A stretch of DNA of 64,000 bases from Planctomycetota bacterium (GTDB lineage Bacteria; Planctomycetota; Planctomycetia; Pirellulales; UBA1268), in NCBI GenBank assembly GCA_016872555.1, contig VGZO01000008.1, forward strand, positions 25,323 through 89,322, written 5' to 3'. The stretch's first letter is position 1, and every line of letters starts with the position of its first letter. This document shows, piece after piece, positions 1 through 62,546 of this stretch. The notes below the pieces were generated by a model that made no database searches, was not told where the DNA came from, and saw only the letters and a program-made list of their open reading frames with translations. A program made the position numbers and the translations under genes.

Positions 1-1
1 G

Positions 2-307
2 CTGGCCTTCGACGTCGTCGACCAGCCCGACCCGATGGTCGAACTGTCGCCGTGGCGCCATGTCCATCCGCCGCACCTCGTCGACCGCTCGCTCCGGAGC
101 CAGCGCGGCGAATTCCGCCTCGTCGACCTCGGCGACGGCCGGACGCGCCTCGAGGGGCGGACCTGGTACGTGTTCGACATGCACCCGCAGGGCTACTGGA
201 CGCTGTGGAGCGACCTGTCGATCCACCGGATCCACCGCCGCGTCCTCGACCACATCAAGCGCCTGGCGGAGGCCGATGCGGCGCGGGAGACGGTCACCGC
301 CCGGTGA
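2..307 (+). CDS. SRPBCC/START-fold-like protein, C-terminal fragment (5' end outside window)
   Basis: Frame-2 ORF is open to the window edge (LAFDVVDQPDPMVELSPW...). Amino-acid composition is ordinary. The family call rests only on remembered similarity of the tail TWYVFDMHPQGYWTLWSDLSIHRIHRRVLDHIKRLAE. Confidence 0.45.
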   Translation: MAFDVVDQPDPMVELSPWRHVHPPHLVDRSLRSQRGEFRLVDLGDGRTRLEGRTWYVFDMHPQGYWTLWSDLSIHRIHRRVLDHIKRLAEADAARETVTAR

Positions 308-1985: not shown

Positions 1986-2043
1986 GGCGGATCTCCGGGG
2001 AACGACGTCCACTGCGGCGCGGCCGGCGATCCCGGGCCGCCGC

Positions 2044-3657: not shown

Positions 3658-3716
3658 GAGTCCTCCTCTCCCTGGAGTGCCTTCCCAGTCCGTTGGGCGT
3701 CAAGATACGGCGCGAC

Positions 3717-5381
3717 TCACCCCTTTTCCAGTAGCAGGAACCTGCGCAGGACGGTTTCCGGAAAAAAGCACCACGGATACTCCCGCGCCCGCAACAGCGC
3801 CGTGGCGCGCACGCGAGTCGCCAACGGTTCGACGTGTGCCTCGAGCGCCACGCGCGCCGGCTCGGCGCGAGCGGCGAGCGCCTCGTTGGCGGCGCGGATC
3901 TCGTGACACCGGCGCCGGGCGAGCGTCGGCGTCGGTGGTGTCTCGATCCACTGCCACTTGCGGCGGACGAGCGCCTCCACCTCCGGTGAGCGCGGCGCGG
4001 CGGGGAGATGCCGCTCCGGGTGGTAGCGCAGGTCGCGGAGCCGGTGGCGAACCAGCCCCAACTCCGCGTGCGGGTCGGAGCCGGCGAGCCCGGGGAAGAC
4101 GTTCTCCAAGGGGAGGTGCAGCGTGCCGGTGACGACGGCATAGCGCGGCTGCTCGCAGCCCGTGAGCCGCTCGACGATGTCGTCGGTGAGCCGGTCGTAG
4201 GCCGCCCCGCCGATGCCGTGCACGAACACGTCGGCGACCAGCAACCGGGCGACGAGCGTCGTCACCAGGGCCCGGGGGCGGAGGCAGAGGCGGTGCTCCT
4301 CGAGCCGGGCCAACGCGTCGACCCATTTCGACGGCGACGTCTCCGGGGTGATCGGCAGCTCGAGCCGGAGCGATTCGAGGTCGGAGAGCAGCAACGTCCC
4401 CGCGGTGCCGGCGTTGGCGTAGACGCGGCGGCGCTGCGGATCGTCGCGCGACCAGATCCACCACGGCACCTCGAACCATGGGCCCTCCCCCGGCCCGCCG
4501 TCGCGGACGACGAGGTCGGGGACGGGGCGGCCGTGGCCTCGGATCCGGTGGCGCCGCCGGTGCGCCGCCAGCGCCGCGTTGTAGGCCTCGTGGACCTCGC
4601 GGGCGCGCGACAACAGCCAGCCCATCAGCACCGACACGGTGGGGAGGCGGACCAACTCGCTGACCGGCAGCTCGAGCGTCTGCAGTCCGAGCCGCTCCTC
4701 CAGCGCGTGACGCGCCTGGGCGATCGCCAGGCCGAGGCGGTGGCTCTCGGCGGCGCGCTCGACGACCAGCGGCCACCAGCGCGCGAGGATCGGGTCGGGG
4801 ACCAGCGGCCGGAGCAGGTCGGTGGCACGGCGGCCGAAGCTGGCGAACGTGTCGGCGGCGACGACGGGGCGTTCCTCCCACGGCATCTCGGAGGCCTCGC
4901 CGTCGAACGCCACGTGCTCGAGGCGCGCGTCGTCGGGGGTGCCGATCGGGAGCGGCACCGCGGCGCGGGCGCAGCGGTCGGTGTCGACGACGAGGTTCAA
5001 GGCCGTGCCGCCGACCTGCCGGGCGTAGGCGTCGAGGGCGAAGTTTTTCAGCCACACGCCCGGATGAAACAGGTCGGGCTGGTGGCCGGCCATCACGATC
5101 GGCCGGGCGATCCAGTCGGCGACGTCGGTGGGACGGTCGACGTCGCGGTAGCTGGCGGTGTAGGTGGCGGCGACGGCGAGGACCTCGCGCCGCGTGGCCG
5201 CGATCAGCTCCCACAGCCGGAGGTCGCCGATCGTCGTGCCGAACGCCGCCCGGAGGAGGCGGTTGTTGTCGACGAGCCTGTCGATGCAGGCCGGCGAGCC
5301 GGCACCGGACACCACCGGGGGATCGACGAGCCGGGCACCGTCGGCCTCGGGGGCGCGGTGGGCAGGGCGTGGGATCGGCAT
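3717..5381 (-). CDS. conserved hypothetical protein (555 aa), weak BshC-like motifs
   Basis: Start set to the ATG at 5381 (MPIPRP), which avoids overlap with the upstream GT2 gene. Composition is normal. The segment MAGHQPDLFHPGVWLKNF resembles the GQQxGLxxGPxYxxxK segment of BshC-type ligases; this is from memory only. Confidence 0.55.
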   Translation of the reverse strand: MPIPRPAHRAPEADGARLVDPPVVSGAGSPACIDRLVDNNRLLRAAFGTTIGDLRLWELIAATRREVLAVAATYTASYRDVDRPTDVADWIARPIVMAGHQPDLFHPGVWLKNFALDAYARQVGGTALNLVVDTDRCARAAVPLPIGTPDDARLEHVAFDGEASEMPWEERPVVAADTFASFGRRATDLLRPLVPDPILARWWPLVVERAAESHRLGLAIAQARHALEERLGLQTLELPVSELVRLPTVSVLMGWLLSRAREVHEAYNAALAAHRRRHRIRGHGRPVPDLVVRDGGPGEGPWFEVPWWIWSRDDPQRRRVYANAGTAGTLLLSDLESLRLELPITPETSPSKWVDALARLEEHRLCLRPRALVTTLVARLLVADVFVHGIGGAAYDRLTDDIVERLTGCEQPRYAVVTGTLHLPLENVFPGLAGSDPHAELGLVRHRLRDLRYHPERHLPAAPRSPEVEALVRRKWQWIETPPTPTLARRRCHEIRAANEALAARAEPARVALEAHVEPLATRVRATALLRAREYPWCFFPETVLRRFLLLEKG

Positions 5382-5502
5382 GCACAAGGCGCGGTCGCCC
5401 GCGTGGTCCCCCTCGGTCCGCTCCGGTCGGCGTCCGCCACCGGACGGTGGCCATGGCAGCCACGCCACCGTGGCCGGCGTCGCGCCATTCCCGGCCGGAA
5501 GT

Positions 5503-6297
5503 TCAGCAGTGTGCCGCCGCGAGCGGATCCTGGCTAGCGCGATTGGCCGCGGGGAGCGGCGGCGCTGCAGGAAGGCGCCAGCCGACGGCCGCCTCGGCGC
5601 GGTCGAGGACGGCGCGGTAATGGGCGAGGCGCGTCTCGGCGTCGTCGAGGGCGCCGCCGAAGCTCCTCGAGAGGTCGAGGTACAGCAGCGGGACGGGGAG
5701 TTCGACGATCGACAGGCCCGCGGCCGCCGCCTGGACCCAGACCTCGAGCGGCATCGCGTAGCCCGTCTCGGTGATCGCCAGGGCCGCCAGTGCCCGCCGC
5801 GAGTAGGCCTTGAAGCCGCAGAAGGCGTCGGTGATCGACAGGCCGAGCCGGGCATTGATCTCAGCGGTGATCGTGGCGTTGATCCGCCGCCGGGCCTCGG
5901 GGGGCTGGCTGTCGCCGGGGAAACGCCGCAGGTAACGGCTGCCGCTGACGATATCGGCGCCGCGGACGGGATCGCTTGCCAGCGCGAGAAACTCGGGGAT
6001 CAACCGCGGCTGGTGCTGGCCGTCGCAGTCGATCGTCACCAGCCCGTCCCACCCGCCGGCCAGCGCCTCGCGGAAGGCGGTCGCCAACGCCGCCCCGTAG
6101 CCCAGGTTCCGCGGATGATGGACGACGCGGACGTCGCCGCGGGCCTCGATCCGGTCGGCGAGGATCCGGGCCGTCCCGTCCGTCGAGCCGTCGTCGACGA
6201 CGCACACGTCGGCGGTGTGGCGGAGGACCTCGTCGAGGACGCCGTCGACATGCGCCGCCTCGTTGAACACCGGCAGGGCCGTGAGGAACCGGGGCAT
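5503..6297 (-). CDS. family 2 glycosyltransferase (dolichyl-phosphate-mannose-synthase-like)
   Basis: Start at ATG 6297 (MPRFLTALPVFNE). Motifs VVDDGSTDGT and TIDCDGQHQP are present. Confidence 0.85.
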   Translation of the reverse strand: MPRFLTALPVFNEAAHVDGVLDEVLRHTADVCVVDDGSTDGTARILADRIEARGDVRVVHHPRNLGYGAALATAFREALAGGWDGLVTIDCDGQHQPRLIPEFLALASDPVRGADIVSGSRYLRRFPGDSQPPEARRRINATITAEINARLGLSITDAFCGFKAYSRRALAALAITETGYAMPLEVWVQAAAAGLSIVELPVPLLYLDLSRSFGGALDDAETRLAHYRAVLDRAEAAVGWRLPAAPPLPAANRASQDPLAAAHC

Positions 6298-6411
6298 GGC
6301 AGGTCCGCCGTGGGGGGGATCGGAGGGGCGCCCTGGCGTCGGGAGGAGTTTTGCCGCACCCCCGGGCCCGATCCCCCAAGCGTAGCGCCGCATTCCGGCC
6401 GGGCAACGAAA

Positions 6412-7233
6412 TCAGCCCTGCAGCGGCAGCCACGGGAGCGGATCGCGGTCGAATCGGCTCTCTCGGCACTCGATGCCGGGCACCGCTGCCTCGAGACGGC
6501 GGCCGAGGGACCGCATCCCGAATTGCTCGCTCGCCTGGTGGCCGACGGCGACCACGGCCACGTCGGCATGGTCGGCCGCGAGGGCGTCGTGGAGGCGCAG
6601 CTCGCCGGTCACGAGCGTCCGGCAGCCGGCGGCGCTGGCCAGCGGAAGACACTCCCCGCCGCTGCCGCACACGATCCCCACCCGCCCGGCCGGCCGGCGG
6701 GGGTCGCCGACCACGTGCGCGCCACAGACGCCCAGGGCGCGGCACAGGCGTGCGGCGACATCGGCCACGGTCGTCAACGCCGGGGAGTCGTCGGGCAGGC
6801 CGCCGCGCCCCGTGCCGACGGTGGGATCGACGGCGTCGGCCACCAGCGGCCTGACATCGGCCAGTCCGAGGAGCGCGGCGAGCTGGTCGTTGATGCCTCC
6901 GGCGGCCGAATCCCAGGCGGTGTGCGAGCTCCACACGCCGATCCCCGCGGTCGCCAGATCGAGGAGCAGGCTGCCGGGCAGACTGTCGTCGACCAGCCGC
7001 GCCACCGGCTTGAACGGGAGCGGATGGTGGGAGACGACCAGGTCGACGCGCTCGGCCACCGCCTCATGGACGACGGCCGATGTCACCGACAGGCAGGTGA
7101 GGATCCGACCGATCGCCGGGCGCCGCGTCGCCACGAGCAGGCCGACGGCATCCCACGGCGCGGCGAGCCGCAGCGGCGCGATCGCTTCCAGGGCCTCGAC
7201 GACGGTGGCCAGCGCGGGCATGCCGGAGAGCAT
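6412..7233 (-). CDS. Nif3-like dinuclear metal center protein
   Basis: Motifs DLVVSHHPLPFKP, SSHTAWDSAAGGINDQLA and TGELRLHD are present. Start is ATG 7233 (MLSGMPAL) or ATG 7221. Confidence 0.8.
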   Translation of the reverse strand: MLSGMPALATVVEALEAIAPLRLAAPWDAVGLLVATRRPAIGRILTCLSVTSAVVHEAVAERVDLVVSHHPLPFKPVARLVDDSLPGSLLLDLATAGIGVWSSHTAWDSAAGGINDQLAALLGLADVRPLVADAVDPTVGTGRGGLPDDSPALTTVADVAARLCRALGVCGAHVVGDPRRPAGRVGIVCGSGGECLPLASAAGCRTLVTGELRLHDALAADHADVAVVAVGHQASEQFGMRSLGRRLEAAVPGIECRESRFDRDPLPWLPLQG

Positions 7234-7269
7234 ACAATTCGGCGGCCTTCGTTCCCCGGGGAATGCTCC

Positions 7270-8064
7270 GTGAGCCCGTTCCGCCTGTGCACTGCGACCG
7301 TCCACCTCTCCGGTTCGCTGCGCTCGGCCCTGCGGCGGGCGCGGACCCTCGGGCTCGACGGCGTCGAGATCGACGCCCGCAACACCCCCGGGGCCGACAG
7401 CCTGTCGAAGACCGGCCGGCGCCAGGTGCGGAAGTGGATCGCCGACGAGGGACTCGCCGTCGCGGCGGTCGCCTTCCCGACGCGCGGCGGCTACGCCGAC
7501 CCCGACCGGCTCGAGGGGCGGATCGCTGCCACGAAGGAGGCAATGACGCTGGCCCACGATCTGGGTGCCGGGCTGGTCTACAACCACGTCGGCGACATTC
7601 CGCCGCCCGGTGCCGACGGCACCCGTGACCCGCGCCGGGCGCTGTTGCTGGAGGTGCTCGGCGATCTGGGCGCGTGGGGGAGCCGCTGCGGGGCGCTATT
7701 CGCCGCCGAGGTCGGTCGGGCGGCGCCCGCCGAGATCGCCACCCTGCTCGACGAGCTCCCCGAGGGGGCGATCGGCTGCCAGCTCGTGACCGGGGCCCTG
7801 GTGGTCAACCGCCACGATCCCGCCGCTACCGTCGCCGTGCTCGGCGACCGGATCCTCCACGTCCATGCCACCGACGCGATCTCGGGGCCGATCGCCGGCC
7901 GCGGGCGGAGCGTGGTCCTCGGGACAGGCCAGGTCGATCTGCCGACGATCCTCGCGGCCCTCGACGACCACGGCTATCGCGGCTGGATCGGCATCGAGCC
8001 GGTCGACACGATCGGCACCGATTCCGAGATCGCCGCGGCCATGCAGGCGATCGCGGCGGTGTGA
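7270..8064 (+). CDS. sugar phosphate isomerase/epimerase (xylose-isomerase-like TIM barrel)
   Basis: This is the C-terminal 265 codons of the 5164..8064 ORF. GTG start at 7270, in frame. Motifs LGLDGVEID, EAMTLAHDLGAGLV, HVHATD and GYRGWIGIEP are present. The upstream part of the ORF is antisense shadow over other genes. Confidence 0.75.
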   Translation: MSPFRLCTATVHLSGSLRSALRRARTLGLDGVEIDARNTPGADSLSKTGRRQVRKWIADEGLAVAAVAFPTRGGYADPDRLEGRIAATKEAMTLAHDLGAGLVYNHVGDIPPPGADGTRDPRRALLLEVLGDLGAWGSRCGALFAAEVGRAAPAEIATLLDELPEGAIGCQLVTGALVVNRHDPAATVAVLGDRILHVHATDAISGPIAGRGRSVVLGTGQVDLPTILAALDDHGYRGWIGIEPVDTIGTDSEIAAAMQAIAAV

Positions 8065-8118
8065 GCGGTGGGATGGCGCGGGCATTCCTGCCCAGGCCCT
8101 TTTGGGCCGCCGCCGCGC

Positions 8119-8157
8119 AAAAAAACCGGGGCCCGCGGTCGGCCGCGGGCCCCGGTT
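8119..8157 (-). terminator. Rho-independent terminator after the DUF1559 operon (bidirectional hairpin between convergent genes)
   Basis: Perfect inverted repeat AACCGGGGCCCGCGG/CCGCGGGCCCCGGTT with a 4-nt loop (8124-8157). On the minus strand it is followed by a run of 7 T (8119-8125). Confidence 0.8.
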
Positions 8158-8184
8158 GAGTTCACAGGACGAGTCGCCGCCGGC

Positions 8185-9303
8185 TCACTCGTTGGCGGTG
8201 TTCTCGGCGCCGGCCTTCGAGCCCAGCGCCCCCCACACGCCGAACGGGCTGGGCGTCTTGTCTTTGTAGGCGACGACCGTCCCGGTGTTGCCGGTGTCGA
8301 TGTTGTCGGCGATGAATCGCACCGAGGCGTCGCAGAACGCCACGCTCACACCACCCGGATGGTAGCTCGACGGCGGCTGGACTGCGTGGTCGTCGTCGGC
8401 ATTATTGATCGGCGCACCGCCCGTGCCCTGACCGGCACCGCACGACGGGGAGTTGGGCGGCAGGACGGTGTTGAAGCCGACCCGGCCGACCTGGCCGTCG
8501 GTCCACTTGTCGCCCCAGTACTGCTTGATGTTGGTACCGGCCACATAGAACTGACCGGCCGCGAGCGTGAGGCAGGCGTTGGGGGTCAAACGGACGGATC
8601 CCAGATGCGCGACGCCGACCCGGATCGGCACGGTGTCCGTCGTGCGGAAGCTGGTGCCGTTTCCACGGATCCGCTCGCTCATCAGGATCGTCTTGCTCGT
8701 GCCATCGACGATATCGGCGATCGTCGTTCCACGCGGCGTGATCGGCGTCGTCCCGCGGTACGCCGTCCGGGTAAACGCTCCGCGGCCGAAGTTGTCTTGC
8801 GTGCGAAGGTTGCTGACCTGATCACCCACGGAAAGCGCGTACGAGTTGGAGGAGATCCGCGAGTCGTTCTCGGTGTCGACCGGGCAGCTCAGGGCCCGCG
8901 GAGCGGTGTTCCACACCGACCAACTGATCCACGCGTACGGTCCACCGGCGGCGATTCCGCCGCCGCCGGCCTGGATCTGGTTGTACATGTTGACTTCCTC
9001 GATGAACGGCAGCAGCTCGACGAATGCACTTCGCCGCGCCGCGTTGTTCGCCGACGAGGGGCCGCCATTCGCCCAGCAACAGGTGCCGCCGGCCGACGCC
9101 GGCAGCGACTTGTTGGTGTTCTCGTAATTCAGGCTGGCCAACGCCAGTTGCTTGATCTTGTTGGTGCAGGCGCTGCGCTGCGCGGCGGCACGCGCGGCTT
9201 GGACCGCGGGCAAGAGCAGGCCGACGAGCGTACCGATGATCGCGATCACGACCAGCAGCTCGACGAGCGTGAAGCCACGCCGGCTGGGATGGGGCTTGTT
9301 CAT
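8185..9303 (-). CDS. DUF1559 / H-X9-DG domain protein with prepilin-type N-terminal methylation motif
   Basis: Start at ATG 9303. N-terminus is [32 protein letters not shown]-terminal signature [26 protein letters not shown] is present. Confidence 0.85.
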
Positions 9304-9427
9304 GGCAACGGGTCCTCGGAAGGAAGTCACGGACGAATGGGACGGATGGATGAAGGGACCGAAACAAACATCTCGAGTGGAAACCGGCAGGCGGGCACCG
9401 AACACGGAATGAACCAATTCAATCGAC

Positions 9428-9919
9428 TCATTTCGCAAGCTCGAAATCGAACGTCGTCGAGCCACCCCCGACGGTCGCCCGAAGTCCCGACTCGCGCGGA
9501 TTGTTGAAACGGGGGGGAATCAGGCTCTTGGCAGGCGGCGGCTCCTTGAGACCTTCCGGGGGAACGTAGTCATCGGAGTTCGCGTTCGCGGATGAACCAG
9601 TCGCCGCTGCCGTTTCATTCTTGACGATCGCGACGCCGTAGTCTCCTGCCACCGCGCCGTCTCCCGCCTCGAACGAAGTCAGGACGTATTTCCCGGCGTC
9701 ATCGGTGATACCGACAGCGGCTCGCCCCCCGGCAGCCACGGGCTGGAAGCTGACGGTTGCGCCGGGCACGGGGGTTCCGTTCATCGTCACCTTCCCCGAC
9801 ACCTTGATGGTAGACGGACGCTTGGGGCCCGACGAGCAGGCCGGGACTGCGACGAGCAGGGCGAGGGCCCCGCCAACGGCCAGAAAACGCGACGCAGTGC
9901 TGCCGGCGAACGAAAGCAT
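9428..9919 (-). CDS. small lipoprotein with carboxypeptidase-regulatory-like beta domain
   Basis: Start at ATG 9919. Lipobox is LLVAVPAC. The segments [19 protein letters not shown]...[11 protein letters not shown] are present. It is a paralog of the 10033..10569 product. Confidence 0.7.
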
Positions 9920-10032
9920 CGAGCGGGGTGCCCTGTGGATGAGTGGACGAAGAACAGGTGGACAGAAGAGGTACGAAACAAACCCAGGCATGCCAGACAA
10001 GCGAAACGAACGAAGAGTCAGCCGACAGAGCG

Positions 10033-10569
10033 TCAATTCTTCAGGTCGAAGACCGCGGGGGCGTTCTCGCCATCCTTGACCTCGACGGTGAGGCCGGACG
10101 TCTTGGCTGCCTTGTACTTGGCCGGGAGCAACTCCTTGGCACCCTTCACGACAGCAGTCACCGCCGTCGAGGGATCATAGGAAGGATCGTCGGCGGTGAG
10201 GGCCCGTCCATCGGGAAACGCCGTCTTGGCGACGGTCACCAGATACTTGCCCGGCACCGCCCCGTCGCGCGATTCGAACGTGGTGAAATTCACCACGCCC
10301 TCGGCGTTGGTCATCCCCGAAGCGGCGTTCCCGGAGCCCCCCTCGGGGGCGAGCACGACCGTCGCCCCTTCGACGGGCGCTCCGTCGAGCGTCACCTTCC
10401 CCGAAAACGGCACCCGCTTGGGGCGCGTATCGACCGGCTTGGCGCAGCCCGCCGTCGCCACCAGCGCGACGACCGCGAGCACGCAAACAAGTGAGCCGAC
10501 ACGTGACGATCCGAGCCCGTCGACCGTTTCCCGTCGCCGACGAATTCCCGAAAGCATGGAGCGGCTCAT
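10033..10569 (-). CDS. small lipoprotein with carboxypeptidase-regulatory-like beta domain
   Basis: ATG 10569 overlaps the upstream stop (ATGA coupling). Lipobox is LVATAGC. The segments [19 protein letters not shown]...[11 protein letters not shown] are present. Confidence 0.7.
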
Positions 10570-11729
10570 TCGTTGCTCACCACTTCGCCACCCGCCTTGG
10601 TGCCCATCGCCCCCCACACGCCGTAGGCGCTCGGGCCCTGGGCGATGTTGGGAAGTGCCAGGTTTCCGGTGTCGATGTTGTCGCTGATGAACCGCACCGA
10701 CGCGTCGGCCATCACGGCGTTGACACCGCCCGGATGGTAGCTCGTCGGCGGGATGAGCTGGTGGGGAAAGTCGTGCGTAGTGCCGCTGTTGCACCCCGGG
10801 CCATTCGGCGGGCTGATCGTGTTGAATCCGTTGAACGCCGGGCGGGCAAACATCCAGTCGCGGCCGGCACGGGGCACGACGACGGCCGATGTGTATGACT
10901 GACCGGAGACCTGGGCCGAACAGACGATCGGGCTGGTCTCGAACCCGGCGACGTTGCCAGCCTGCGTCTCGCGGACCAGGAAGCTGTTGTCACGGCCGCG
11001 GATCCGCTCCGACATCAGGAGCGTCTTGCTCGTGCCGTCGGTGATGTCTTTCATCGCCGTGAAGTTGGGCTCGGTCGGGGCGCCGGGATTGACGCCACCG
11101 ATCAGGCCGCGGCCGAAGATGCCGCGGGTGATCGTCGTCTCGGAGACGTTTTGGCAGACGTCGCCCATCGAGAACACGTAATTGGTCGTGCCACGGTTGC
11201 CGTCCCCGTGGAACGCCGTCGTCCGTCCGTCAGACGGGCAGCGGAGCGTGGGCACCTGGGCCATCATGATGTTGGAGAATGCTCCAGCAGGCCCAGGCAC
11301 ACTTGCAGAGCCTCGCCACGGCTGAAAATTGTCAGGTGGATTCCCTGCCGCTGGGAATGACAAAACCCCCGTGCTCGTCAGCCAGTTGACGATCGTGTCG
11401 TAGTAGGTGCCCTGCTCGTAGAACGGCAGCAGCGGGAGATTCCCGCTCCACCATTCGAGGATGTAGACGTACTGCGGGGCGATCCGCGGGCTGGTGATCT
11501 TCATGTCCTGCCCGCGGAGGGCGACGAAGTGCTTCCGCGAATCATGGTAGGTCTGGTTGGCCAGGCCGAGTTGCTTGAGGTTGTTGGTGCAACGCGAGCG
11601 GTTGGCCGCCTCACGGGCAGCCTGCACGGCGGGCAGCAGCAGCCCGACGAGCGTCCCGATGATGGCGATGACGACGAGCAACTCGACGAGCGTGAAGCCG
11701 CTCGGACCGCGGCGGTGAGCATGTGGCAT
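10566..11729 (-). CDS. DUF1559 / H-X9-DG domain protein with prepilin-type N-terminal methylation motif
   Basis: ATG at 11729. N-terminus is [30 protein letters not shown]-terminal signature [26 protein letters not shown] is present. Confidence 0.85.
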
Positions 11730-11894
11730 CGGACGGCACTCCAGACTGGGAAACGATGACGAGACGATGGATGGGGCCGAAAAATGGGGGAATCAGGATA
11801 AAAATGGCCGGGGTCAGGCAGCGAGCGCAGTCGAGACGATCACCCACGGCGATCGACGAATTCCCCCGCTCCCCAAGGCCCTTGGCAACCTGCA

Positions 11895-11922
11895 AAATTA
11901 TCGGTTGCGGCGCCGGTGTCAA
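11895..11922 (-). promoter_or_regulatory. candidate sigma70-like promoter for the DUF1559/lipoprotein operon
   Basis: The minus strand reads TTGACA-N16-TAATTT (plus-strand tgtcaa at 11917-11922 and aaatta at 11895-11900), about 170 bp upstream of ATG 11729. This is sequence resemblance only. Confidence 0.3.
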
Positions 11923-12054
11923 CATGAAAACGTCATGCTATGGAACGGTTTTCTCGGGGGTTCAAGGGTGTCCCCACCGTTGCGGGGCAGGGTAGGAGTT
12001 CTCCCCACTGCCATCGGCCCATGCCCGGCCAGCCTCGGCCCGACGGCGCGGCCA

Positions 12055-12744
12055 TCACGCGAATCGTGCGGCGGCGGCGAGCGCCGCGGTCTCGACGCGG
12101 AGAACGTGCCGCGAAAATGACACACGCCTCGCGCCAGCGGCCAGGGCGACGGCGATCTCCTCCGGCGTGAAGCCCCCCTCCGGCCCGACGAGCACCAGCA
12201 CCGCTGCCGCACCGGGATCGGGCGCCGGCGCCGCGCCGCCGGCGTCGGCAAGGAGGAGCGACGTCCCCGCGTGCGGGCCGCGAACCGCTTCGTCCATCGT
12301 CGCCGGGGGGAGGATCGTCATCAGGTGATCGCGCCGGCACTGCTTGCAGGCTTCGAGCACCGCGCGCTCGAGCCGCGTGCGGGCCGCGGGGCCGGGCTCG
12401 GCGACGCCGCGCGTCGTCAGCAGCGGCAGCAGGGAAGCGGCCCCCAATTCGGTGAGTTTTTCGGCGAGCCACTGCTGGCGCTCTCCCTTGGGAAGCGCCA
12501 CGGCGACGGTCAGCGACGGACTGCCTGGGACTGGCGTCACCACCGGCGCGCCCGTGGACAGCTCGACGCGGTCGCGGCCGATCGCCGCGACTTCCGCCGG
12601 CCAGCGCGTGCCCCGGCCGTCGAACAGCTCGACGCGATCCCCGACGCGCGCCCGCATCACCCGCGCCAGATGGCGGGCCTCGTCCCCCTCGAGCAGCGCC
12701 CGGCCGTCGCGCGGAGGCTCGGGGAGGAAGAAGCGTTCGCTCAT
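12055..12744 (-). CDS. rsmE: 16S rRNA (uracil1498-N3)-methyltransferase
   Basis: Start at ATG 12744 (MSERFFLPEPP). Motifs DEARHLARVMRARVGD, KGERQQWLAEKLTELG and LVGPEGGFTPEE are present. Confidence 0.85.
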   Translation of the reverse strand: MSERFFLPEPPRDGRALLEGDEARHLARVMRARVGDRVELFDGRGTRWPAEVAAIGRDRVELSTGAPVVTPVPGSPSLTVAVALPKGERQQWLAEKLTELGAASLLPLLTTRGVAEPGPAARTRLERAVLEACKQCRRDHLMTILPPATMDEAVRGPHAGTSLLLADAGGAAPAPDPGAAAVLVLVGPEGGFTPEEIAVALAAGARRVSFSRHVLRVETAALAAAARFA

Positions 12745-12931
12745 CGGATGGACCCCGGGCTCGAGGCGATGGCGGGAAAGGACACGTTTCGGAGGGCAGG
12801 GAAACGACCGCGGCCGCCAGCGGACGAGGCCATTGTCCACTCCCGGGGCCCTCCGCGCCAGCGATTGCCCCTGACCTGCCCCTCGGCCGTCGCTACATTC
12901 GCGGCGACTTCGCTCCCCGCCACTCGTTCCG

Positions 12932-13807
12932 ATGCCGTCTCGCGATCCTCCGCCGGGTCCCGCTCCGTTCGACGGCACGCTGTCGCCGGCGACGTTCCAC
13001 GTCGCGCAGCCGCAGGAAGAAGCGCTGGCCCGGCTCGAATGGCTCCATGGGCAGCGGCAGCGGCTCGGCGTCGTGACCGCGGCAACCGGCGGCGGGAAGA
13101 GCCACTTCCTCGCCGCGGCGGCGCGGAGGCTGGCGGGGGCCGGCGCCGAGGTCGCGGTGCTGTCGCTGGCCGGCCTGGGCGCCGGTGAATGGATCGGGCT
13201 GCTCCTCGAGCGGCTGCCGCTCGACCCGGCCAGCCGCGCCGACCCTGGGAGCGAGTGGAGCCGGCTCGAGGCGCGCCTCCGAGAGAACACGCTCATGGAG
13301 CGGACCACGGCGCTGCTGTTCGACGATGTCGACCGCGGTCCCGCCGACGTGCTGGCCGGCATCGGCCGGCTGACGGGGGGCGCCGAGCCGCGCTTCGCAC
13401 GCGTGCTGGTCGTGGCGACGGCGCTGCCCGAGGCCCTCGCCGCGCTCCCGGCGCAGCTCCGGTCGCAGATCACGCTGCGGATCGATCTGCCGCCGTGGAC
13501 GGAAGCCGAGGTCGCCGCGTTCCTCGACTGGGAAGGGGCCCGGATCGGCGCGCGCGAGCCGCTGTTCTCGCCGGTGGCGGCCGGGGCCCTCGCCCGGTTC
13601 ACCGGCGGTGTCCCCCGCCGCGTGGTGCAGTTGGCGCGACTGGCGCTGGCTGCCGCGGCCGGAGCCAACGTGGCGACGGTCGATCCCGAGCTCGTCGAGC
13701 GCGCGTGGTGCGAGTTGCTTCCCGCCCACGCCCCGGCGCCGCAGGCGACCGTCGAGACGGCCACCACGCCGGCCACGGTCCGCCCGGTCCGCCGCCTCTG
13801 GAGCTGA
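12932..13807 (+). CDS. AAA ATPase, ExeA/GspA-like
   Basis: Walker A is TAATGGGKSHFL and a Walker B-like segment is ALLFDDVD. It is divergent from rsmE. Confidence 0.6.
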   Translation: MPSRDPPPGPAPFDGTLSPATFHVAQPQEEALARLEWLHGQRQRLGVVTAATGGGKSHFLAAAARRLAGAGAEVAVLSLAGLGAGEWIGLLLERLPLDPASRADPGSEWSRLEARLRENTLMERTTALLFDDVDRGPADVLAGIGRLTGGAEPRFARVLVVATALPEALAALPAQLRSQITLRIDLPPWTEAEVAAFLDWEGARIGAREPLFSPVAAGALARFTGGVPRRVVQLARLALAAAAGANVATVDPELVERAWCELLPAHAPAPQATVETATTPATVRPVRRLWS

Positions 13808-13881
13808 TGGGGAAACGCCGATTCCCGGCGCCCGTCGCGGGAAAAACCCTGGTACGATCGACCACTCATCCGGAGGTTCCG

Positions 13882-14682
13882 ATGCCCGTTTCCCCGGCCG
13901 CCAAAGACAGGTCGCCCGACGCCCGGCGGCGCGGGCGGATCGTCGCCGTCTCCCCCGACGACGGCAGCGCGATCGACCTCAAGAACCCGGCGCTGGCGGC
14001 GCTCCTCTCCTGGCTCGTCCCCGGTCTCGGGCAGCTCTACCAGGGGCGCCGCTTCAAAGGTGGCCTGTTGATGGGCATGATCCTGTTCACGCTCGTGGTC
14101 GGGATGTGGCTCGGCGGTGGCCGGTCGGTGTATGCCTCGTGGACCCCGCGGGCGTTGGCTCCGGGGCGGCCGCTCGTGGCGCGGATCGACCGCTGGAGCT
14201 TCCTCTGCCAGGCCGGCATCGGGATCGTCGCCCTGCCGGCGCTGGTCCAGACGTCGAGCCTCCATGGCACCGCCCGCGAGCCGCTGCTTCCCGGTAGCTT
14301 CCTCGCGCCGCCGCTGGTCCCCAGGCAGGTCGTGTCGCGCCGCTATGCCGACCGGCTCGTGCAGGCCGATCCCGACATCGAACCCGACGACTTCGTCGAT
14401 CGTCCCCCGGGGAAGGAGAGCCGCTTCGACCAGGTGTCGCTGTGGCACCGGCGCCTGGGGCGCTGGTTCGACATCGGCACGCTGTGGACGATGCTCGCCG
14501 GGATGCTCAATCTGCTCGTGGTGTACGACGCCTGGGCCGGTCCGATGGTGGCCACCGGAAGCCCGGGGAAGGGAACGCCATCGGGTGATGGCGGCCCCGA
14601 GCCCGGTCCCGGTCGCGGGCCGGGCGGTGGTCGGGAGAGCGGCGGCGACGGCCGCCGCCCGGCGCGGGAGCGCGGCACATGA
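13882..14682 (+). CDS. integral membrane protein (GLGQLYxGRxxKG motif family)
   Basis: ATG 13882 is preceded by GGAGG at 13873-13877. Contains LLSWLVPGLGQLYQGRRFKGGLLMGMILF plus further hydrophobic segments and a Gly/Pro-rich tail. Confidence 0.6.
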   Translation: MPVSPAAKDRSPDARRRGRIVAVSPDDGSAIDLKNPALAALLSWLVPGLGQLYQGRRFKGGLLMGMILFTLVVGMWLGGGRSVYASWTPRALAPGRPLVARIDRWSFLCQAGIGIVALPALVQTSSLHGTAREPLLPGSFLAPPLVPRQVVSRRYADRLVQADPDIEPDDFVDRPPGKESRFDQVSLWHRRLGRWFDIGTLWTMLAGMLNLLVVYDAWAGPMVATGSPGKGTPSGDGGPEPGPGRGPGGGRESGGDGRRPARERGT

Positions 14683-32994: not shown

Positions 32995-33380
32995 CCGAGC
33001 CCGGCGACTTTTGGGCCAGCGCCCCCAGTATCGGATGCTGCCTGGAATGGTCGTGGACGACCCTCGCCATCCATTGGATCGAGCCCGCGAGGGTAACCGA
33101 GTCGGGAGACAACATCGACGACCCCACGGCTGCCGAGATCGAGGAAGTCGGGCGGCCCGAAGACGCACTCCTTGCTCTGGCGGGGGGGCAGGAAAACCAT
33201 CGAATTGACTGAATCAGGGGCCTTCGGACGGCGGGCTGCGTTTAGGAACAGCGGCACTTTGTTGCCGAATCAACGTGCCCTTCTATGAAAAGCGCAAGTT
33301 AGCAGCGGCGTGATCGAAGGGAAGAGTTGCGGCGATATGACGATGAACGCTGGGTGGGCCTCGATTTGGGTGTTCCCGGC

Positions 33381-33421
33381 CGGAGCGGCGGCAGGCCCCC
33401 AAGCAGCCTGCCGCCGCTCCG
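33381..33421 (-). terminator. perfect 16-bp stem hairpin 22 bp downstream of the DndB-like gene (candidate terminator, no U-tract)
   Basis: CGGAGCGGCGGCAGGC (33381-33396), a 9-nt loop, then GCCTGCCGCCGCTCCG (33406-33421). Confidence 0.45.
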
Positions 33422-33442
33422 TGACCGCGGGCAAGGGCGCCC

Positions 33443-34600
33443 TCAAGCGGTCACGAGAGCGCCGGCCCGGATCCGCTGATAGTTGGGCTGAGTGGGATCA
33501 GTAAGGGCCCGGTAAACGGCATACGCCGTCTCCTTGGAGCCTCCGATCGACAGCTTGCCGCTCGGGCTCAGCTTGCCGGCGATGCCGTTCCAGTGCTCGC
33601 CCTTATCCCAATCGACCGACTTCAGCTCGTCGATCAGTCGCTTCATCTCCTGCTGCCGGTTCGGAAGGTTGACGAGGGAATGCCCCATCGCCCCGATGGC
33701 CGCCAGCACCGCCGGCGCGGAGGCCACCGACTGATCCCTCAACTCCATGGCTGGCCTGATCGCCTCGGCCACGGCTCCGAACCACTCCTTCGCAACCTCG
33801 GTGAGGTGCTTCAGATCTCCCGCCACGGCGACCGGCTTGGCCCCGTGCTTCACGCCGCCAATGCCCTCGGCAAGCGTGACGCAGGCACCGCGGAGCGCCG
33901 TAATCGTGACGACATGCCTATCCGACCTCCGCAGTTGCCGCCGCACGGTGTTGACCCTGTCCTTGAAGAACGGGACCTCCTGCTCGAGAGTCCTGGCAAT
34001 GCCCGTTGCCGGATCCCGGGCGTCCATCGAGATACCCACGGCGGCGTTCGGCCGAACGCCGCACATGTTCAGGTCATGAAAGACCTGACGAGCCCAGGTC
34101 AGGTCGAGCCCGTGACAGATCATCACCGGGACTGACGCGGCCTGCGTGGACGGATCCATGCTCGCCGCCTCAAACCGGGCGGCCAACTGCGTCTCGCCAT
34201 CGATGGCGATGAGCATGGTTCCGTACGGGATCTGGATCTGGCCCCCGGCGTCTGGAGAGTTGGTCCACTTCAACTTCTCCTTGGTGAACAGGATGATCGG
34301 CGGCGCCATCCCGTTCTGACCGTTGTGGACGGCGACGAGGTAGTCGGCGTAGGGCCCGACGTTCCGCTCCTTCGCCCCCTCAAACAACCGCTGCACCATC
34401 TCGCGGATCTTGCGGGTCTCACTGAGCGAGGCGTCCGCCGCGACCTGCTTCTCGTCCTCGGTCCGCCGAGGATCCTGCGCCACCTGCATCAACTGGGCGG
34501 CCTTCATCCGGCCCAGAAACCGGTGGGTGTCGAGGGAGACTCCCGCGACGATGTGCCCCTCGGTGGTATTCAGTCGATCGATCGATTCAGAAGATTCCAT
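33443..34600 (-). CDS. DndB / DGQHR-domain-like protein (ParB/Srx-fold), divergent motif DGETQ, orphan
   Basis: ATG 34600 is preceded by GAGGG 8 nt upstream; the ORF-track start at 34666 is a TTG. FLGRMKAAQLMQV, VQRLF..AKERNVGPYADYL....APPIILF and LIAIDGETQLAARFEA parallel remembered DndB segments (..LRGRM.., IQR..., FAIDGQHRLAA). Confidence 0.6.
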   Translation of the reverse strand: MESSESIDRLNTTEGHIVAGVSLDTHRFLGRMKAAQLMQVAQDPRRTEDEKQVAADASLSETRKIREMVQRLFEGAKERNVGPYADYLVAVHNGQNGMAPPIILFTKEKLKWTNSPDAGGQIQIPYGTMLIAIDGETQLAARFEAASMDPSTQAASVPVMICHGLDLTWARQVFHDLNMCGVRPNAAVGISMDARDPATGIARTLEQEVPFFKDRVNTVRRQLRRSDRHVVTITALRGACVTLAEGIGGVKHGAKPVAVAGDLKHLTEVAKEWFGAVAEAIRPAMELRDQSVASAPAVLAAIGAMGHSLVNLPNRQQEMKRLIDELKSVDWDKGEHWNGIAGKLSPSGKLSIGGSKETAYAVYRALTDPTQPNYQRIRAGALVTA

Positions 34601-34672
34601 TTGAACAACCCTCAGTTGTGACTGCGCCCCCTCGCCAAAGCGGCTCGGGCGTCGCTTCGAGTTCAAAATATC

Positions 34673-34755
34673 GACCCGAGTCGATCCGTCAACAACTCGA
34701 GTTGCAGCTGTGAAAACTCGGGTCTTTTTTCAGGCTGTTTCTCATGACCCGAGCT
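34673..34755. promoter_or_regulatory. phased array of four palindromic ACYCGRGY cores upstream of the DndB-like gene
   Basis: GACCCGAGTC (34673-34682), the perfect 12-bp palindrome CAACTCGAGTTG (34693-34704), AACTCGGGTC (34715-34724) and GACCCGAGCT (34746-34755). Centre-to-centre spacing is 21, 21 and 31 bp. Confidence 0.35.
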
Positions 34756-34992
34756 CGCAATTCTGATCTAGACACTTGGTGTCTGCGAATTTCCTGGGGT
34801 CCTCCGAAGGGCTCAATAACTGCTAAAGCCCTTGATGACGGAGGTTTATGATTTTTTTAGCATGGCTGCAGGCGCGTTCAGAGCATCCCTTGTGCCGCAG
34901 CACCGCCGTGCACCAGGCCTGCCCGAAGCCCGCATCCTGATTGGATTGGGCCCGGGGGAAGGGGCCCAGAAACTTTGGGCAGCAGAATCCGC

Positions 34993-35883
34993 TCACGAGG
35001 CTGCGGCGTCCTCGATCCCGTCGAGCAGCGTGGGGATCTTGTTCGCCCGGATCGTGGCTATGACCGCCGACGAGGATTTCCAGGGCTCTCCCGGCATGCG
35101 GGTGATGAGTTGCCGCCACACTCGACCAAACGCCGCGATCGCCGTCTCCTCGTCAAAAATCACCCCTGCTGGCAGCAGCGGAGCAACGTCTTCCGTCAGG
35201 CTCCGGTTGAGCTTCTGCAGCATCCGCTCCTCGCTGATGGCCCGGGTGATTGGATGTCCTTCCAGTTCCAGGTAGTGCCGAAAACAGTCGATCAACCGGT
35301 CGTGGTCGAGCCCTGGCAGCAGCAGCGCCTCGTTGAGGTCGAACAAATCGCGATTCTTGTTCCGCTGCAGGAGGGCCCGCAGTTTTGTGGCGAGCAATTC
35401 CTCCCGGTCGTACGACATGATCTCGACCCGCCCGCGGTGCCAGTCGCTTTCGACTGCGTAAGGATAGGCGAGAAGCCCATGCCGGCTCTGGTGTTCCCGG
35501 GTGTTGATCTCGATCTTGAGCTTGAGCGGCTGGTCGCTGGTCTCCTCGGGAGTGAATCTGAAGATGAGCGCGGTCGAGCGCTGGCCTTGAATCCGCTTTC
35601 CTCGCCCAAGCCACGAGAGTGCATCTTGAACTCCGTCGATCACCGGCCCGATCGCCTCCGCTCGAGTCTGCACGAGGTCGATATCCTCGGAATAACGCAG
35701 CGGCTTCGCGAACAGGAGTTTGTGAAGCGCAGTTCCGCCGCGAAATGCGATCCGATCGCGGATTGCTCTGCTGGCGAAGAGATCGCACAGGGCGCGGGAA
35801 ATGACCAGATCCTGTTCGACCTGTCGGAGATCGGGCCACGGCGCGGCAGCGGTCCAGTGTTGGATGTACGCCCGTGGGATCAT
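34993..35883 (-). CDS. abiEii: AbiEii/AbiGii-family nucleotidyltransferase toxin (type IV TA / abortive infection)
   Basis: MIPRAYIQHWTAAAPW..., FRGGTALHKL and RYSEDIDL (NTase motif) are present. The length of about 296 aa is typical. ATGA overlap with abiEi. Confidence 0.8.
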   Translation of the reverse strand: MIPRAYIQHWTAAAPWPDLRQVEQDLVISRALCDLFASRAIRDRIAFRGGTALHKLLFAKPLRYSEDIDLVQTRAEAIGPVIDGVQDALSWLGRGKRIQGQRSTALIFRFTPEETSDQPLKLKIEINTREHQSRHGLLAYPYAVESDWHRGRVEIMSYDREELLATKLRALLQRNKNRDLFDLNEALLLPGLDHDRLIDCFRHYLELEGHPITRAISEERMLQKLNRSLTEDVAPLLPAGVIFDEETAIAAFGRVWRQLITRMPGEPWKSSSAVIATIRANKIPTLLDGIEDAAAS

Positions 35884-36698
35884 GCGTCGATCTCGACGTC
35901 ACTATTGATCGTGAGTTTCCAGGGCTTGTTCCGCTCTTCGCAAGCGGCCAACGGTCGTGCTGCCGGCTTGAGCGACGGGTCGAGCAGCGTGAATGACTTC
36001 GCCTGCTCGGCATACTGCGCGAGAGATCGAGATTGACGGGTGTACCCGAAATGCTCGAGAAGGTATCCGAGCCTGCGCACCGCCGTGTTGTCGTAGGCCT
36101 TGGCTGCGGCGGCGAGAACGCTGCCGCGGGCCTTGTCTCCAAGATCGTGCACGGCCTGGGCCGCGGCATTGAGCCCTCCCGCGCGGTGGAAATAGCCGCA
36201 CATGTCGAGCAGCGTCAGTTCGAGGCCGGCGACCTTGGCAAACCCCGCGTCGGTCTTGAGGCGATCGAGCCACGCGGGCTGGTTCGTTCGCGCGAAGGCC
36301 TCGGCCGTCTGGTAGAGGAACTCGATCCGATGCCGGCCGATCACGATGAGCGGAAGCTGCCGCGGCGAAATCACCTGAAAGACCATGGCGGCTTGGTGGG
36401 CGGCGCCATGGAAGGCTGCGGCCCTCAGCAGCGACACCCGATAGTCGAGCCCAAGATGCGCCATCAGCGGGTCGATCCAACGGGCTGGATCGGGGGCGCC
36501 GAGGAGGCGATCCTCGGGCCGTAGAATCAAATAAAAGCCTCGGCGGGGGGACACGAGGCGGCCCTTTTTGGCCAGCCGTGAAGCCGCCGCCTGCAAGGCC
36601 TTGGGTGATTGCCGAAGTGCCGCCAGTGCCGCGGGCTTCGTGAAGAAAGCCCGGCCGTTCAGACGCTGCTGATCGATGAAATCTTCCAGTTCACCCAT
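35880..36698 (-). CDS. abiEi: AbiEi-family antitoxin/transcriptional regulator (type IV TA)
   Basis: Positioned immediately upstream of abiEii and overlapping it. The N-terminal wHTH-like segment is FFTKPAALAALRQSPKALQAAASRLAKKGRLVSPRRGFYLI. The C-terminal segment is AFHGAAHQ. Confidence 0.75.
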   Translation of the reverse strand: MGELEDFIDQQRLNGRAFFTKPAALAALRQSPKALQAAASRLAKKGRLVSPRRGFYLILRPEDRLLGAPDPARWIDPLMAHLGLDYRVSLLRAAAFHGAAHQAAMVFQVISPRQLPLIVIGRHRIEFLYQTAEAFARTNQPAWLDRLKTDAGFAKVAGLELTLLDMCGYFHRAGGLNAAAQAVHDLGDKARGSVLAAAAKAYDNTAVRRLGYLLEHFGYTRQSRSLAQYAEQAKSFTLLDPSLKPAARPLAACEERNKPWKLTINSDVEIDA

Positions 36699-61078: not shown

Positions 61079-61708
61079 TCAGTCGAGCGACAGGAGCGAC
61101 GACCTCACCTCGCGGAGCCGCGCCAGCGTGGGCGCGTCGCGCAGGTGCGGATACTCCTCCAGCAGGGCGACGACATCGGCGATGTCGTGCTGCCGCTTGC
61201 TCGGCCGTCGCTGCGGCTCGGCCGCTGCCGCGAGTTTGAGCACGATCATGTCGATCGGTGTCGCCACACGGATCACCAGTCCGTCGGCAAGATGCGTCGG
61301 TTCGGCGCGACTGACGGCATCGGCGATCCCCACATCGTCGGCCGAAAACCGCACCGTCGTTCGCAGGCTGCCGGAACCACCTGCCGGAGCCTGCCAGGTG
61401 TCGCTGTGAGCATGCCGGCCCCTATGCTCGAATCCGGCGGCGACAAGCGCGGCACGCGGAATATCGTCGAATCGCGGGACGGCGATGTCGATGCCGAGCG
61501 TCGTCCGTGGCTCGCCCGTGCGGATCTGCATGGCCACGCCACCGATCAGCGCATAGGCCACCCGTTCGCGGTTGAGGAGGGTCGCCACCAGCCGAAGCGG
61601 CCCCTCCTTCGTGTCGCTCGGATCGATGCCCATCGTCTCGGTCCAGAGGTGATCGAGCGCCAACCCGATCAGGAGCCGCTCGCGGGCAGCCTCGGCAGAA
61701 GAGGTCAT
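61079..61708 (-). CDS. minimal nucleotidyltransferase-fold protein (MNT/AbiEii-like), no adjacent partner
   Basis: Start at ATG 61708. The NTase-like motif is ALIGGVAMQIRTGEPRTTLGIDIAV. ...KRQHDIADVVALL is also present. Confidence 0.55.
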   Translation of the reverse strand: MTSSAEAARERLLIGLALDHLWTETMGIDPSDTKEGPLRLVATLLNRERVAYALIGGVAMQIRTGEPRTTLGIDIAVPRFDDIPRAALVAAGFEHRGRHAHSDTWQAPAGGSGSLRTTVRFSADDVGIADAVSRAEPTHLADGLVIRVATPIDMIVLKLAAAAEPQRRPSKRQHDIADVVALLEEYPHLRDAPTLARLREVRSSLLSLD

Positions 61709-61976
61709 GGCACGCTCTCGGGATCGGGTCGCCGACCGCACTCTCCGCGGTCGCTGATCGAATGAGTCCGGCCGTGCCGCGCCGGTCGTCATCGTCACGG
61801 GCGTCGGGGACGGGAGTGGGCCATCGCCCCGACTCCAGCCACCATTGTAATCGGCAGCGATACCGCGATCGGCGCCCCGAGGCCGCCCAGCGGCCACCGA
61901 GGGCTCGCCGTCACCCCGTTTGATCGGGCGCCCCCGGTATGCTCGAGCAGGACCGATGACCTCCGGAGGGGTGGCG

Positions 61977-62546
61977 ATGCACGAGATGCTGTCGGTAACG
62001 CTGACGTTGTTTGCCGGGGTTCTCGCGGGCGACGGCGCCCTGCTTCCGCTTCTCGACTTTGCCGCTCCCGACGCCGGGCAGGTGTGGCAGGCGGTGAACG
62101 ACGGCGTGATGGGTGGGCGTTCGCAGGGGCGCTTCAGGATCACCGAGACCAAATCGCTCGAGTTTTCGGGAAACCTGTCGCTCGAGAACAACGGCGGCTT
62201 CGCGTCGGTGCGCACCAAGCCGATGGCGCTGGGGATCGCGGCGGGCGACACGCTCGTCATGCGCCTCAAGGGAGACGGCCGCGAATACATGGTCAATATC
62301 TACACCACGGCCCGGCGCATGGCGTTTTCCTACCGGGCCGTCGTGGCGACGGAGAAAGACCGGTGGCAGGAGATCCACGTGCCGCTTGACCGGTTCGAGC
62401 CGACCTCGTTCGGCCGGATCGTGCCCGGCATGGGCCCTGTCGCCCCCGACCAGATCAACGGCTTCGGCTTCATGCTCGGCGACAAGAAGCCGGGCGCGTT
62501 CCGTCTGGAAGTCGAGTGGGTCAAGGTGCTCCGCGGCAGCGAGTGA
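61977..62546 (+). CDS. CIA30 (complex I intermediate-associated protein 30)-like family protein
   Basis: ATG 61977 is preceded by GGAGGG. WQAVNDGVMGGRSQGRF, NNGGFASVR and FMLGDKKPGAFRLEVEWVKV are present. Confidence 0.75.
   Translation: MHEMLSVTLTLFAGVLAGDGALLPLLDFAAPDAGQVWQAVNDGVMGGRSQGRFRITETKSLEFSGNLSLENNGGFASVRTKPMALGIAAGDTLVMRLKGDGREYMVNIYTTARRMAFSYRAVVATEKDRWQEIHVPLDRFEPTSFGRIVPGMGPVAPDQINGFGFMLGDKKPGAFRLEVEWVKVLRGSE

Follow-up and report, generated by a model that had tools for sequence, protein, structure and literature searches.

What does a protein of the DNA sulfur modification family DndB do at a locus where no other Dnd gene is found and where its signature motif reads DGETQ in place of DGQHR? 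The question is raised by a gene for a 385-amino-acid protein (positions 33443 to 34600, minus strand) in a 64-kb stretch of contig VGZO01000008.1 from a Planctomycetota bacterium, referred to here as the window. The original prediction, made from the sequence without database searches, described the product as an orphan, divergent relative of DndB with a ParB/Srx fold, placed it in a defence context and proposed a single-gene or AbiE-associated function. Our analysis suggests that the gene is a copy of a monocistronic cassette that has spread horizontally, and that it would encode a stand-alone, self-repressing DNA binder of the DndB type with a remodelled nucleotide loop; we give this reading a probability of roughly 0.6. 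The most informative feature is one that the original prediction did not contain, namely a conserved promoter overlaid by a candidate operator array.

Family membership and the altered nucleotide loop

The coding region contains the following features:

33443 to 34600, minus strand: gene for a DndB-family protein of the DG[E/D]TQ clade, 385 amino acids (Pfam, NCBIfam and PADLOC matches; alignment of homologs)
34388 to 34393, minus strand: codons of the QR pair (Q70, R71), conserved in DndB (alignment)
34187 to 34201, minus strand: DGETQ codons, residues 134 to 138, at the DGQHR position of DndB (MAFFT alignment with operon-encoded DndB)
34067 to 34081, minus strand: codons of FHDLN, residues 174 to 178, the FxxxN motif of the DGQHR domain (alignment; motif definition in PMC4619093)

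The longest open reading frame (ORF) that ends at 33443 on the minus strand has 407 amino acids and begins with a TTG at 34666. The shorter form of 385 amino acids, which begins with the ATG at 34600, is supported because the closest homologs have the same length and the same N-terminus (MES..E....RLN), because a GAGG-type ribosome site lies just 5' of this ATG, and because the alternative TTG sits within a promoter-like -10 hexamer.

The sole Pfam match of the 385-amino-acid protein is to DndB (PF14072; 100 bits, E value 1.8e-28, residues 97 to 339), and the DndB model of PADLOC also matches it (96 bits). Its score against the DGQHR domain model TIGR03187 (64.1 bits, cutoff 58.85) makes it a member by profile without the name-giving residues, and its score against the DndB equivalog model TIGR03233 (85.7 bits) is far under the cutoff of 328. 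These profile matches bear out the collinearity with DndB that had been proposed from the letters, and the segments on which the proposal relied are all present: FLGRM (residues 28 to 32), VQR (69 to 71), PPIILF (100 to 105) and LIAIDGETQLAARFEA, which contains DGETQ. No match to the NCBIfam DpdB model, no sequence-level match to ParB models and no DUF262 or DUF1524 Pfam domain was found in the protein. The R-x(4-6)-H motif of the HEPN-containing DndB architecture (Makarova 2013) is not conserved in residues 230 to 385 of the homolog alignment, where the conserved H307 stands 19 residues from R288; the alignment holds many invariant polar residues. By its profile matches the protein is thus a member of the DndB family, but one that fails the signature, the equivalog score and the operon linkage of DndB proper.

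The predicted architecture combines a ParB/Srx-like N-terminal half with a helical C-terminal half of the DndB type, and the AlphaFold2 model has a mean pLDDT (predicted local distance difference test score) of 86. Searches of PDB sequences with the single protein and with the profile returned no meaningful match. Among the viral structures in BFVD, the model matched DndB-like, GmrSD-N, AIPR and ParB-like proteins with low TM-scores (template modelling scores), which confirms the superfamily only.

The window protein and four relatives were aligned with two operon-encoded DndB proteins, one from the dndA and dndBCDE operon on an Agrobacterium larrymoorei Ti plasmid and one from a dndBCDE operon on a Pseudomonas aeruginosa plasmid. 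Identity between the clade protein and these references is 22-24%. Common to them and the window protein are the QR pair, FxDLN, an MD.RD-like segment and a C-terminal W..G, and DGETQ matches DGQHR column for column, exactly the replacement of Q-H-R by E-T-Q that had been read from the sequence. The DGxxR loop is homologous to the phosphate-binding motif GxxRxxA of ParB, and its arginine is required for the nucleoside triphosphatase (NTPase) activity of SspE and also of DndI (R87A mutant). DpdB is a robust ATPase with DGQQR (PMC10164549), and DndB has been described as a repressor modulated by ATP (adenosine triphosphate). In the clade the loop is G-E/D-T-Q-x-x-A, which retains the glycine, the alanine that caps the helix and an acidic residue but has no basic residue left. 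We infer that the phosphate-contacting arginine of DndB, DpdB, SspE, DndI and ParB is missing from this loop and that an acidic residue stands there instead, so that nucleotide handling in the DG[E/D]TQ clade is expected to be lost or changed. An arginine four residues past the loop, R142, is invariant in the close clade only.

A large and patchily distributed clade

The window gene is no lone oddity, as the word orphan had implied, since its motif defines a large conserved clade. A word-indexed search gave more than 451 homologs, with AIDGETQLA in at least 113 of the 120 top matches listed. In a scan of one genome per species, which is biased because the motif was among its two search patterns, 186 loci were found among the genomes of 185,579 species, and nearly all of them retain DGETQ, down to 30% identity. 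Free of this bias is an exhaustive HMMER search of 1.84 billion representatives of 50%-identity clusters, in which the number of matching clusters was 186 at E <= 1e-30, rising to 534 at E <= 1e-10 and to 1010 at E <= 0.001. When the best 150 clusters were aligned to the profile, 127 spanned the motif and 112 the position of the QR pair. The motif is DGETQ in 84 and DGDTQ in 20 of the 127, single-residue variants make up the rest, and DGQHR occurs in none; an acidic residue occupies motif position 3 in about 110 clusters, and the QR pair is retained in 104 of 112. The recurrence of an acidic residue, T and Q at motif positions 3, 4 and 5 across these clusters indicates that these residues have been selected and have not decayed. 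The longer members of the clade contain no Pfam domain beyond PF14072, and hence no fused effector.

The family extends over Planctomycetota, Acidobacteriota, Proteobacteria, Chloroflexota and Actinomycetota. Loci at 45-61% identity come from Acidobacteriota, Alpha-, Beta-, Gamma- and Deltaproteobacteria, Planctomycetota and Dehalococcoidia, and loci at 29-38% identity from Streptomyces, Kitasatospora and Micromonospora. The patchy spread across distant phyla, between which identity is 50-60%, suggests horizontal transfer of an accessory gene. No clade member was found in 50,697 phage records or in IMG/VR; the phage records gave distant DndB-family matches only (21-27% identity), and plasmids gave only two actinobacterial members, at about 30% identity. 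At five loci (L033, L034, L035, L040 and L047) the gene is split into two ORFs or truncated, and these copies are either pseudogenes or frameshift errors of metagenome assemblies built from long reads.

No description of the clade was found in full-text literature searches for DGETQ, DndB-like or orphan dndB, and a detailed reappraisal of Dnd systems makes no mention of a DG[E/D]TQ clade (PMC10853773). On the alignments and profiles, the window gene belongs to a large, undescribed clade of the DndB family that is marked by DG[E/D]TQ.

A cassette with its own promoter and a candidate operator array

The following features surround the coding region:

about 33377 to 34835, minus strand: cassette of about 1.46 kb (DNA similarity to loci L086, L088 and L089; guanine plus cytosine (GC) content 63.6% against 70-72% in the flanks)
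34665 to 34692, minus strand: sigma-70-like promoter, TTGACG-16-TATTTT (from the sequence; position kept in the same three loci)
34644 to 34753, no strand assigned: candidate operator of five CTCGRG/CYCGAG hexamers (motif counts, alignment)
33385 to 33417, minus strand: GC-rich hairpin with a 13-bp stem (alignment of relatives, one compensatory pair)

DNA similarity with the three loci reaches about 180-235 bp 5' of the ATG and about 75 bp beyond the stop codon and ends there, which on the 5' side is about 160 bp before the neighbouring gene abiEii. Within this cassette the five hexamers lie at 34644-34649, 34675-34680, 34696-34701, 34717-34722 and 34748-34753, with a spacing of 31-21-21-31 bp and an orientation that alternates about the central palindrome ACTCGAGT; one of them falls within the spacer of the promoter, another within the leader. 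All three exact copies of CTCGGGTC in the 64 kb fall in 81 bp 5' of the gene, although 7.5 copies would be expected window-wide. No other comparably phased CTCGRG array was found in the window. The only other window site with three hexamers of the CTCGRG type, at 12688 to 12765, has spacings of 30 and 42 bp and is probably due to chance.

The array is a property of the clade as well as of this locus. When 7-mers were counted de novo in the 250 bp that precede the gene at 41 loci and compared with the remainder of those loci, the top enriched words were all variants of wCTCGRGw, each in 20-25 loci and enriched 25-55 fold. With the strict pattern, 99 sites were found at the 41 loci against about 5.5 expected, and 30 of the 41 have two or more CTCGRG sites. 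Among the 63 spacings between sites, a distance of exactly 21 bp occurs 32 times and one of 31 bp occurs 11 times, with most others at 22, 30, 32, 42 or 52 bp. As these distances of 21-52 bp are whole numbers of helical turns, the sites form a helically phased array. Hosts that carry it range from Acidobacteriota to Pseudomonas and Massilia and represent several phyla.

About 25 nucleotides past the stop codon lies the hairpin, which has no T tract and is kept in the relatives with 85-92% identity. It is probably the terminator of a monocistronic unit, and a role in the mobility of the cassette is conceivable. An integron attC-like site was also considered for this hairpin and rejected, given that the gene has its own long promoter region, that no cassette arrays are seen and that the 5' border of similarity decays gradually. 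Within the leader, from the putative transcription start to the ATG (34603 to 34660, minus strand), the block CGAC.CCCGAG.C..TT.GGC.A.GG is near-invariant in four relatives; it carries the fifth hexamer and a weak predicted hairpin, which lends weak support to a leader RNA hairpin.

Proposed mechanism and comparison with known systems

Since the same array fronts the gene in hosts of several phyla, the encoded protein is the simplest common binder. We propose that the protein would bind the CTCGRG array as a multimer, with several dimers along one face of the promoter DNA, and would so shut down expression of its own gene, in the manner of DndB at the TACG-N10-CGTA boxes. The replacement of the phosphate-contacting arginine suggests that the ATP-driven release switch of DndB has been lost or re-tuned to another ligand. 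The operator controls nothing else in cis, which points to the protein itself as the payload of the cassette.

The closest precedent is DndB (DptB) of the dndBCDE operon, for example in Salmonella enterica Cerro 87, which has the same two-part architecture as the clade protein and belongs to the same Pfam family. DndB represses the dndBCDE promoter, and therefore its own gene, through two TACG-N10-CGTA palindromes (PMC4507180). This arrangement of repeated palindromes in the protein's own promoter resembles the palindrome-like hexamer array over the clade promoter, to which binding is predicted. The two differ in the motif (DGQHR in DndB, DG[E/D]TQ in the clade), in the operator (TACG-N10-CGTA against CTCGRG at 21/31-bp phasing), in the N-terminal segment, which is longer in the clade protein, and in gene organization, as the clade gene is monocistronic, ends in a hairpin and is not followed by dndCDE. 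DpdB of the 7-deazaguanine (Dpd) system is a homodimer of similar size with a ParB-like N-terminal domain, a helical C-terminal domain and no nuclease motif (PMC10164549). Its motif, however, is DGQQR; it is an ATPase that works with DpdA, and the window has no Dpd match in PADLOC.

More distant likenesses are found among the sensors that combine DUF262 with DUF1524/HNH (SspE, DndI, GmrSD and BrxU) and in NsnA of the Menshen system. These proteins and the clade share an N-terminal domain of the ParB/Srx-derived superfamily, which is marked by QR, DGxxR and FxxxN, and their helical middle or C-terminal domains are related (PMC4619093, PMC12065111). The clade differs from the DUF262-DUF1524 sensors in that it has no DUF262, DUF1524 or nuclease domain; the sensors need the motif arginine for NTPase activity. 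A separated arrangement of sensor and nuclease was seen on the P. aeruginosa plasmid (L084, 11679 to 13590), where dndBCDE is followed by a second DGQHR-domain protein beside an HNH endonuclease.

KorB, VirB and Noc are stand-alone CTP (cytidine triphosphate) switches of the ParB fold, that is, regulators that load at specific DNA sites. They belong to another family and have a helix-turn-helix (HTH) DNA-binding domain and two loop arginines. The GE at the start of the clade loop resembles the GERRxRA of ParB, but both arginine positions are taken by T and Q in the clade.

Genomic neighbourhood

One neighbouring module lies within the same low-GC segment:

34993 to 36698, minus strand: abiEi-abiEii pair, a separately acquired neighbour module (Pfam, PADLOC, tblastn census)

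As the original prediction noted, an AbiE pair adjoins the gene: AbiEi (35880 to 36698) and AbiEii (34993 to 35883) are encoded 5' of it on the same strand. Together with the DGETQ gene they make up a 3.7-kb island of 63-64% GC, against 70-72% in the flanks, which borders cheR and a gene for a response regulator with PP2C. The identical protein occurs in eight metagenome contigs with the same neighbours, and these contigs therefore represent one population. In a tblastn census, AbiE homologs were found only in the window and in the same-population contigs L090-L092; AbiEi and AbiEii are absent from all other family loci examined, including the relatives with 85-92% identity. There the neighbours are an AddAB-like helicase-nuclease, a PIF1 helicase with an RNase T/BRCT protein, a 690-amino-acid protein without known family, and an IS21 helper. 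The adjacency to AbiE is a coincidence, and the proposed AbiE-associated function is not supported.

No neighbour takes its place. All-against-all clustering of the ORFs at 36 loci with 45-61% identity gave no conserved neighbour common to more than five of them, and one copy of the family lies within an lpxD-fabZ-lpxA cluster. Among the 126 proteins encoded by the two genes to either side, Pfam and PADLOC identified mostly oxidoreductases, methyltransferases, amidohydrolases, transporters and kinases. With the two reference operons as tblastn queries, no DndA, DndC, DndD or DndE was found within 8 kb of the family loci examined or anywhere in the 64 kb, and the Dnd, Ssp and Dpd models of PADLOC matched none of the 44 window ORFs. 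Thus the stretch is indeed without a sulfur-modification or deazaguanine partner, and the idea of an undescribed, stand-alone group is upheld by the absence of Dnd genes and of a conserved neighbour at the other loci.

Elsewhere in the window, a second, divergent AbiEii-like ORF of 405 amino acids (61079 to 62296, minus strand; Pfam AbiEii, 2.2e-7) lies in a lower-GC stretch at 61-64 kb, and a PADLOC AbiEii match of 7.3e-9 most likely corresponds to it. Other PADLOC matches among the 44 ORFs are mad3 (4e-36), mad8 (1.6e-9), HEAT-ARM_XIII and CARF3, which may be generic domain matches. The window families include DUF1559, DUF1501, DUF1549 and N-terminal methylation motifs, in keeping with a planctomycete source. 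Positions 8000 to 12500 have 65% GC and contain DUF1559/N-terminal-methylation genes at 8185-9465 and 10566-11729; these are families typical of planctomycetes and do not mark a foreign island.

Actinobacterial branches

Consistent surroundings of defence genes are found in the actinobacterial branches only. At all ten Streptomyces/Kitasatospora loci (L036-L039 and L041-L046) a gene for an NYN protein that matches HEC-09 of PADLOC, with E values down to 4e-57, lies on the same strand 3' of the DGETQ gene, at about 9130 to 9990 of each locus. Another arrangement recurs at 28 Streptomyces loci, where an HTH/type I-like methyltransferase gene next to hsdR and hsdM runs divergently from the DGETQ gene, and where unknown genes and an Hsp70-NYN fusion come after the DGETQ gene. 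The order of this island (L050-L080, about 1 to 14500; for example L052) is HsdR, a likely specificity gene, HsdM, the divergent methyltransferase, which carries a fused specificity part, the DGETQ gene, three genes of 191, 587 and 216 amino acids without a Pfam or PADLOC match, and the Hsp70-NYN fusion, which has a weak PDC-M61B match.

HEC-09 on its own did not protect against phages in the study in which it was put forward, and it may need a DGETQ partner. A further-reaching and rather improbable idea is that DG[E/D]TQ proteins are DNA sensors of the ParB/Srx fold without the arginine NTP switch, forming a one-gene system against foreign DNA that a five-site operator would silence, and coupled in actinobacteria to an NYN RNase of the HEC-09 type. 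If true, the pairing of sensor and NYN RNase would explain why HEC-09 alone fails to protect.

Weighing the explanations

Several observations weigh against a self-repressing DNA binder. Phased sites are missing at 8 of the 41 close loci, the hexamer is missing from the Streptomyces branches, and the array could be recognised by another factor. A nucleotide might yet be bound through T137, Q138 and the invariant R142. Foldseek matches in the PDB (ParB-N, PadC, DndI and SspE) are weak, all with E values above 0.2, so that the structural argument rests on sequence homology and the order of secondary structure. Nor do the close-clade neighbours help, as defence-like genes make up only about 6-8 of the 126 in the flanks, chiefly for DNA methyltransferases, plus a single SoFic and a single WYL protein, and there is no clear defence-island signal. 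The defence context that had been assumed therefore fits the actinobacterial branches but not the close clade, whose flanks are mostly metabolic. A role of the protein in genome conflict, whether as defence against or control of foreign DNA, is suggested by the patchy spread across phyla, the lower GC, the split copies, the tight multi-site repression and the actinobacterial contexts; we regard such a role as a realistic prospect that falls somewhat short of even odds.

Among the alternatives, the one we take most seriously, while still thinking it unlikely, is an effector enzyme encoded by one gene, perhaps a nuclease, an NTPase or a nucleotide-degrading enzyme, in which the acidic residue of DG[E/D]TQ would be catalytic or bind metal and the operator would only repress a toxic product. 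The selection on the acidic position and the many invariant polar residues would suit such an enzyme. In addition, tight multi-site operators appear typical of toxic genes, and the ParB/Srx superfamily has nuclease and NTPase members, with a possible nucleotide-degrading DndB effector under discussion (PMC10853773). However, no nuclease domain or fusion is recognisable, the HEPN motif is absent from the C-terminal half, the core held in common with the regulator DndB is otherwise intact, and the genes around the close clade mark no defence islands. Appreciably less probable is a plain transcription factor or nucleoid-associated protein, domesticated for host genes and without a role in conflict. 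Flanks of metabolic and housekeeping genes, and absence from phages, viral contigs and almost all plasmids, are what such a regulator would lead one to expect. It accords poorly with a distribution of 186 loci in 185,579 species genomes at 50-60% identity between distant phyla, with a gene GC below that of the host, with several split or truncated copies, with the lack of a second phased array in the window, and with actinobacterial branches that sit among restriction and RNase genes.

An ordinary regulator or accessory ATPase of the DndB/DpdB type, acting in trans on an unlinked dnd, ssp or dpd cluster, would be in keeping with membership of the DndB family and with the frequent separation of dndA from the other dnd genes (PMC3632139). 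We consider it very unlikely, because DndB is described as an operon member in Dnd-positive taxa (PMC10853773, PMC4507180), no Dnd gene lies within 8 kb at the family loci examined, and dndBCD occurs in only 568 of 31,478 genomes (PMC11662687). Moreover, the characterised partners all have DGQHR or DGQQR, with an arginine that none of the top clade clusters has, and here the candidate operator fronts the gene itself and a probable terminator hairpin follows it. The explanation that fares worst, and that we hold to be almost certainly wrong, makes the protein a third partner in the neighbouring AbiE toxin-antitoxin system. The gene does share a strand and one low-GC island with abiEii, from which 392 bp separate it on the downstream side, but it has its own promoter, the similarity of the cassette stops short of abiEii, the other family loci examined carry no AbiE, and AbiE is a complete two-gene system by the Pfam and PADLOC models. 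A stand-alone, self-repressing DndB-type protein in a mobile cassette thus appears to be the explanation that best accounts for the locus.

Implications for the DndB family

Database labels such as 'DNA sulfur modification protein DndB' and 'DGQHR domain-containing protein' are misleading for this clade, which has neither the motif nor the pathway, and counts of phosphorothioation systems that rely on the DndB label are inflated by its members. The clade is also a natural experiment on the ParB/Srx nucleotide loop, in which a supposedly essential arginine has been replaced and strong purifying selection nevertheless persists. Tests of binding, nucleotides and phage challenge would be straightforward, since the cassette is small, comes with an operator and promoter of its own, and is found in hosts that can be cultured, among them Massilia alkalitolerans DSM 17462, Pseudomonas sp. 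PB101 and many Streptomyces. Of particular interest is the pairing of DGETQ proteins with HEC-09-type NYN proteins in actinobacteria, which, if functional, would constitute a new two-gene system.

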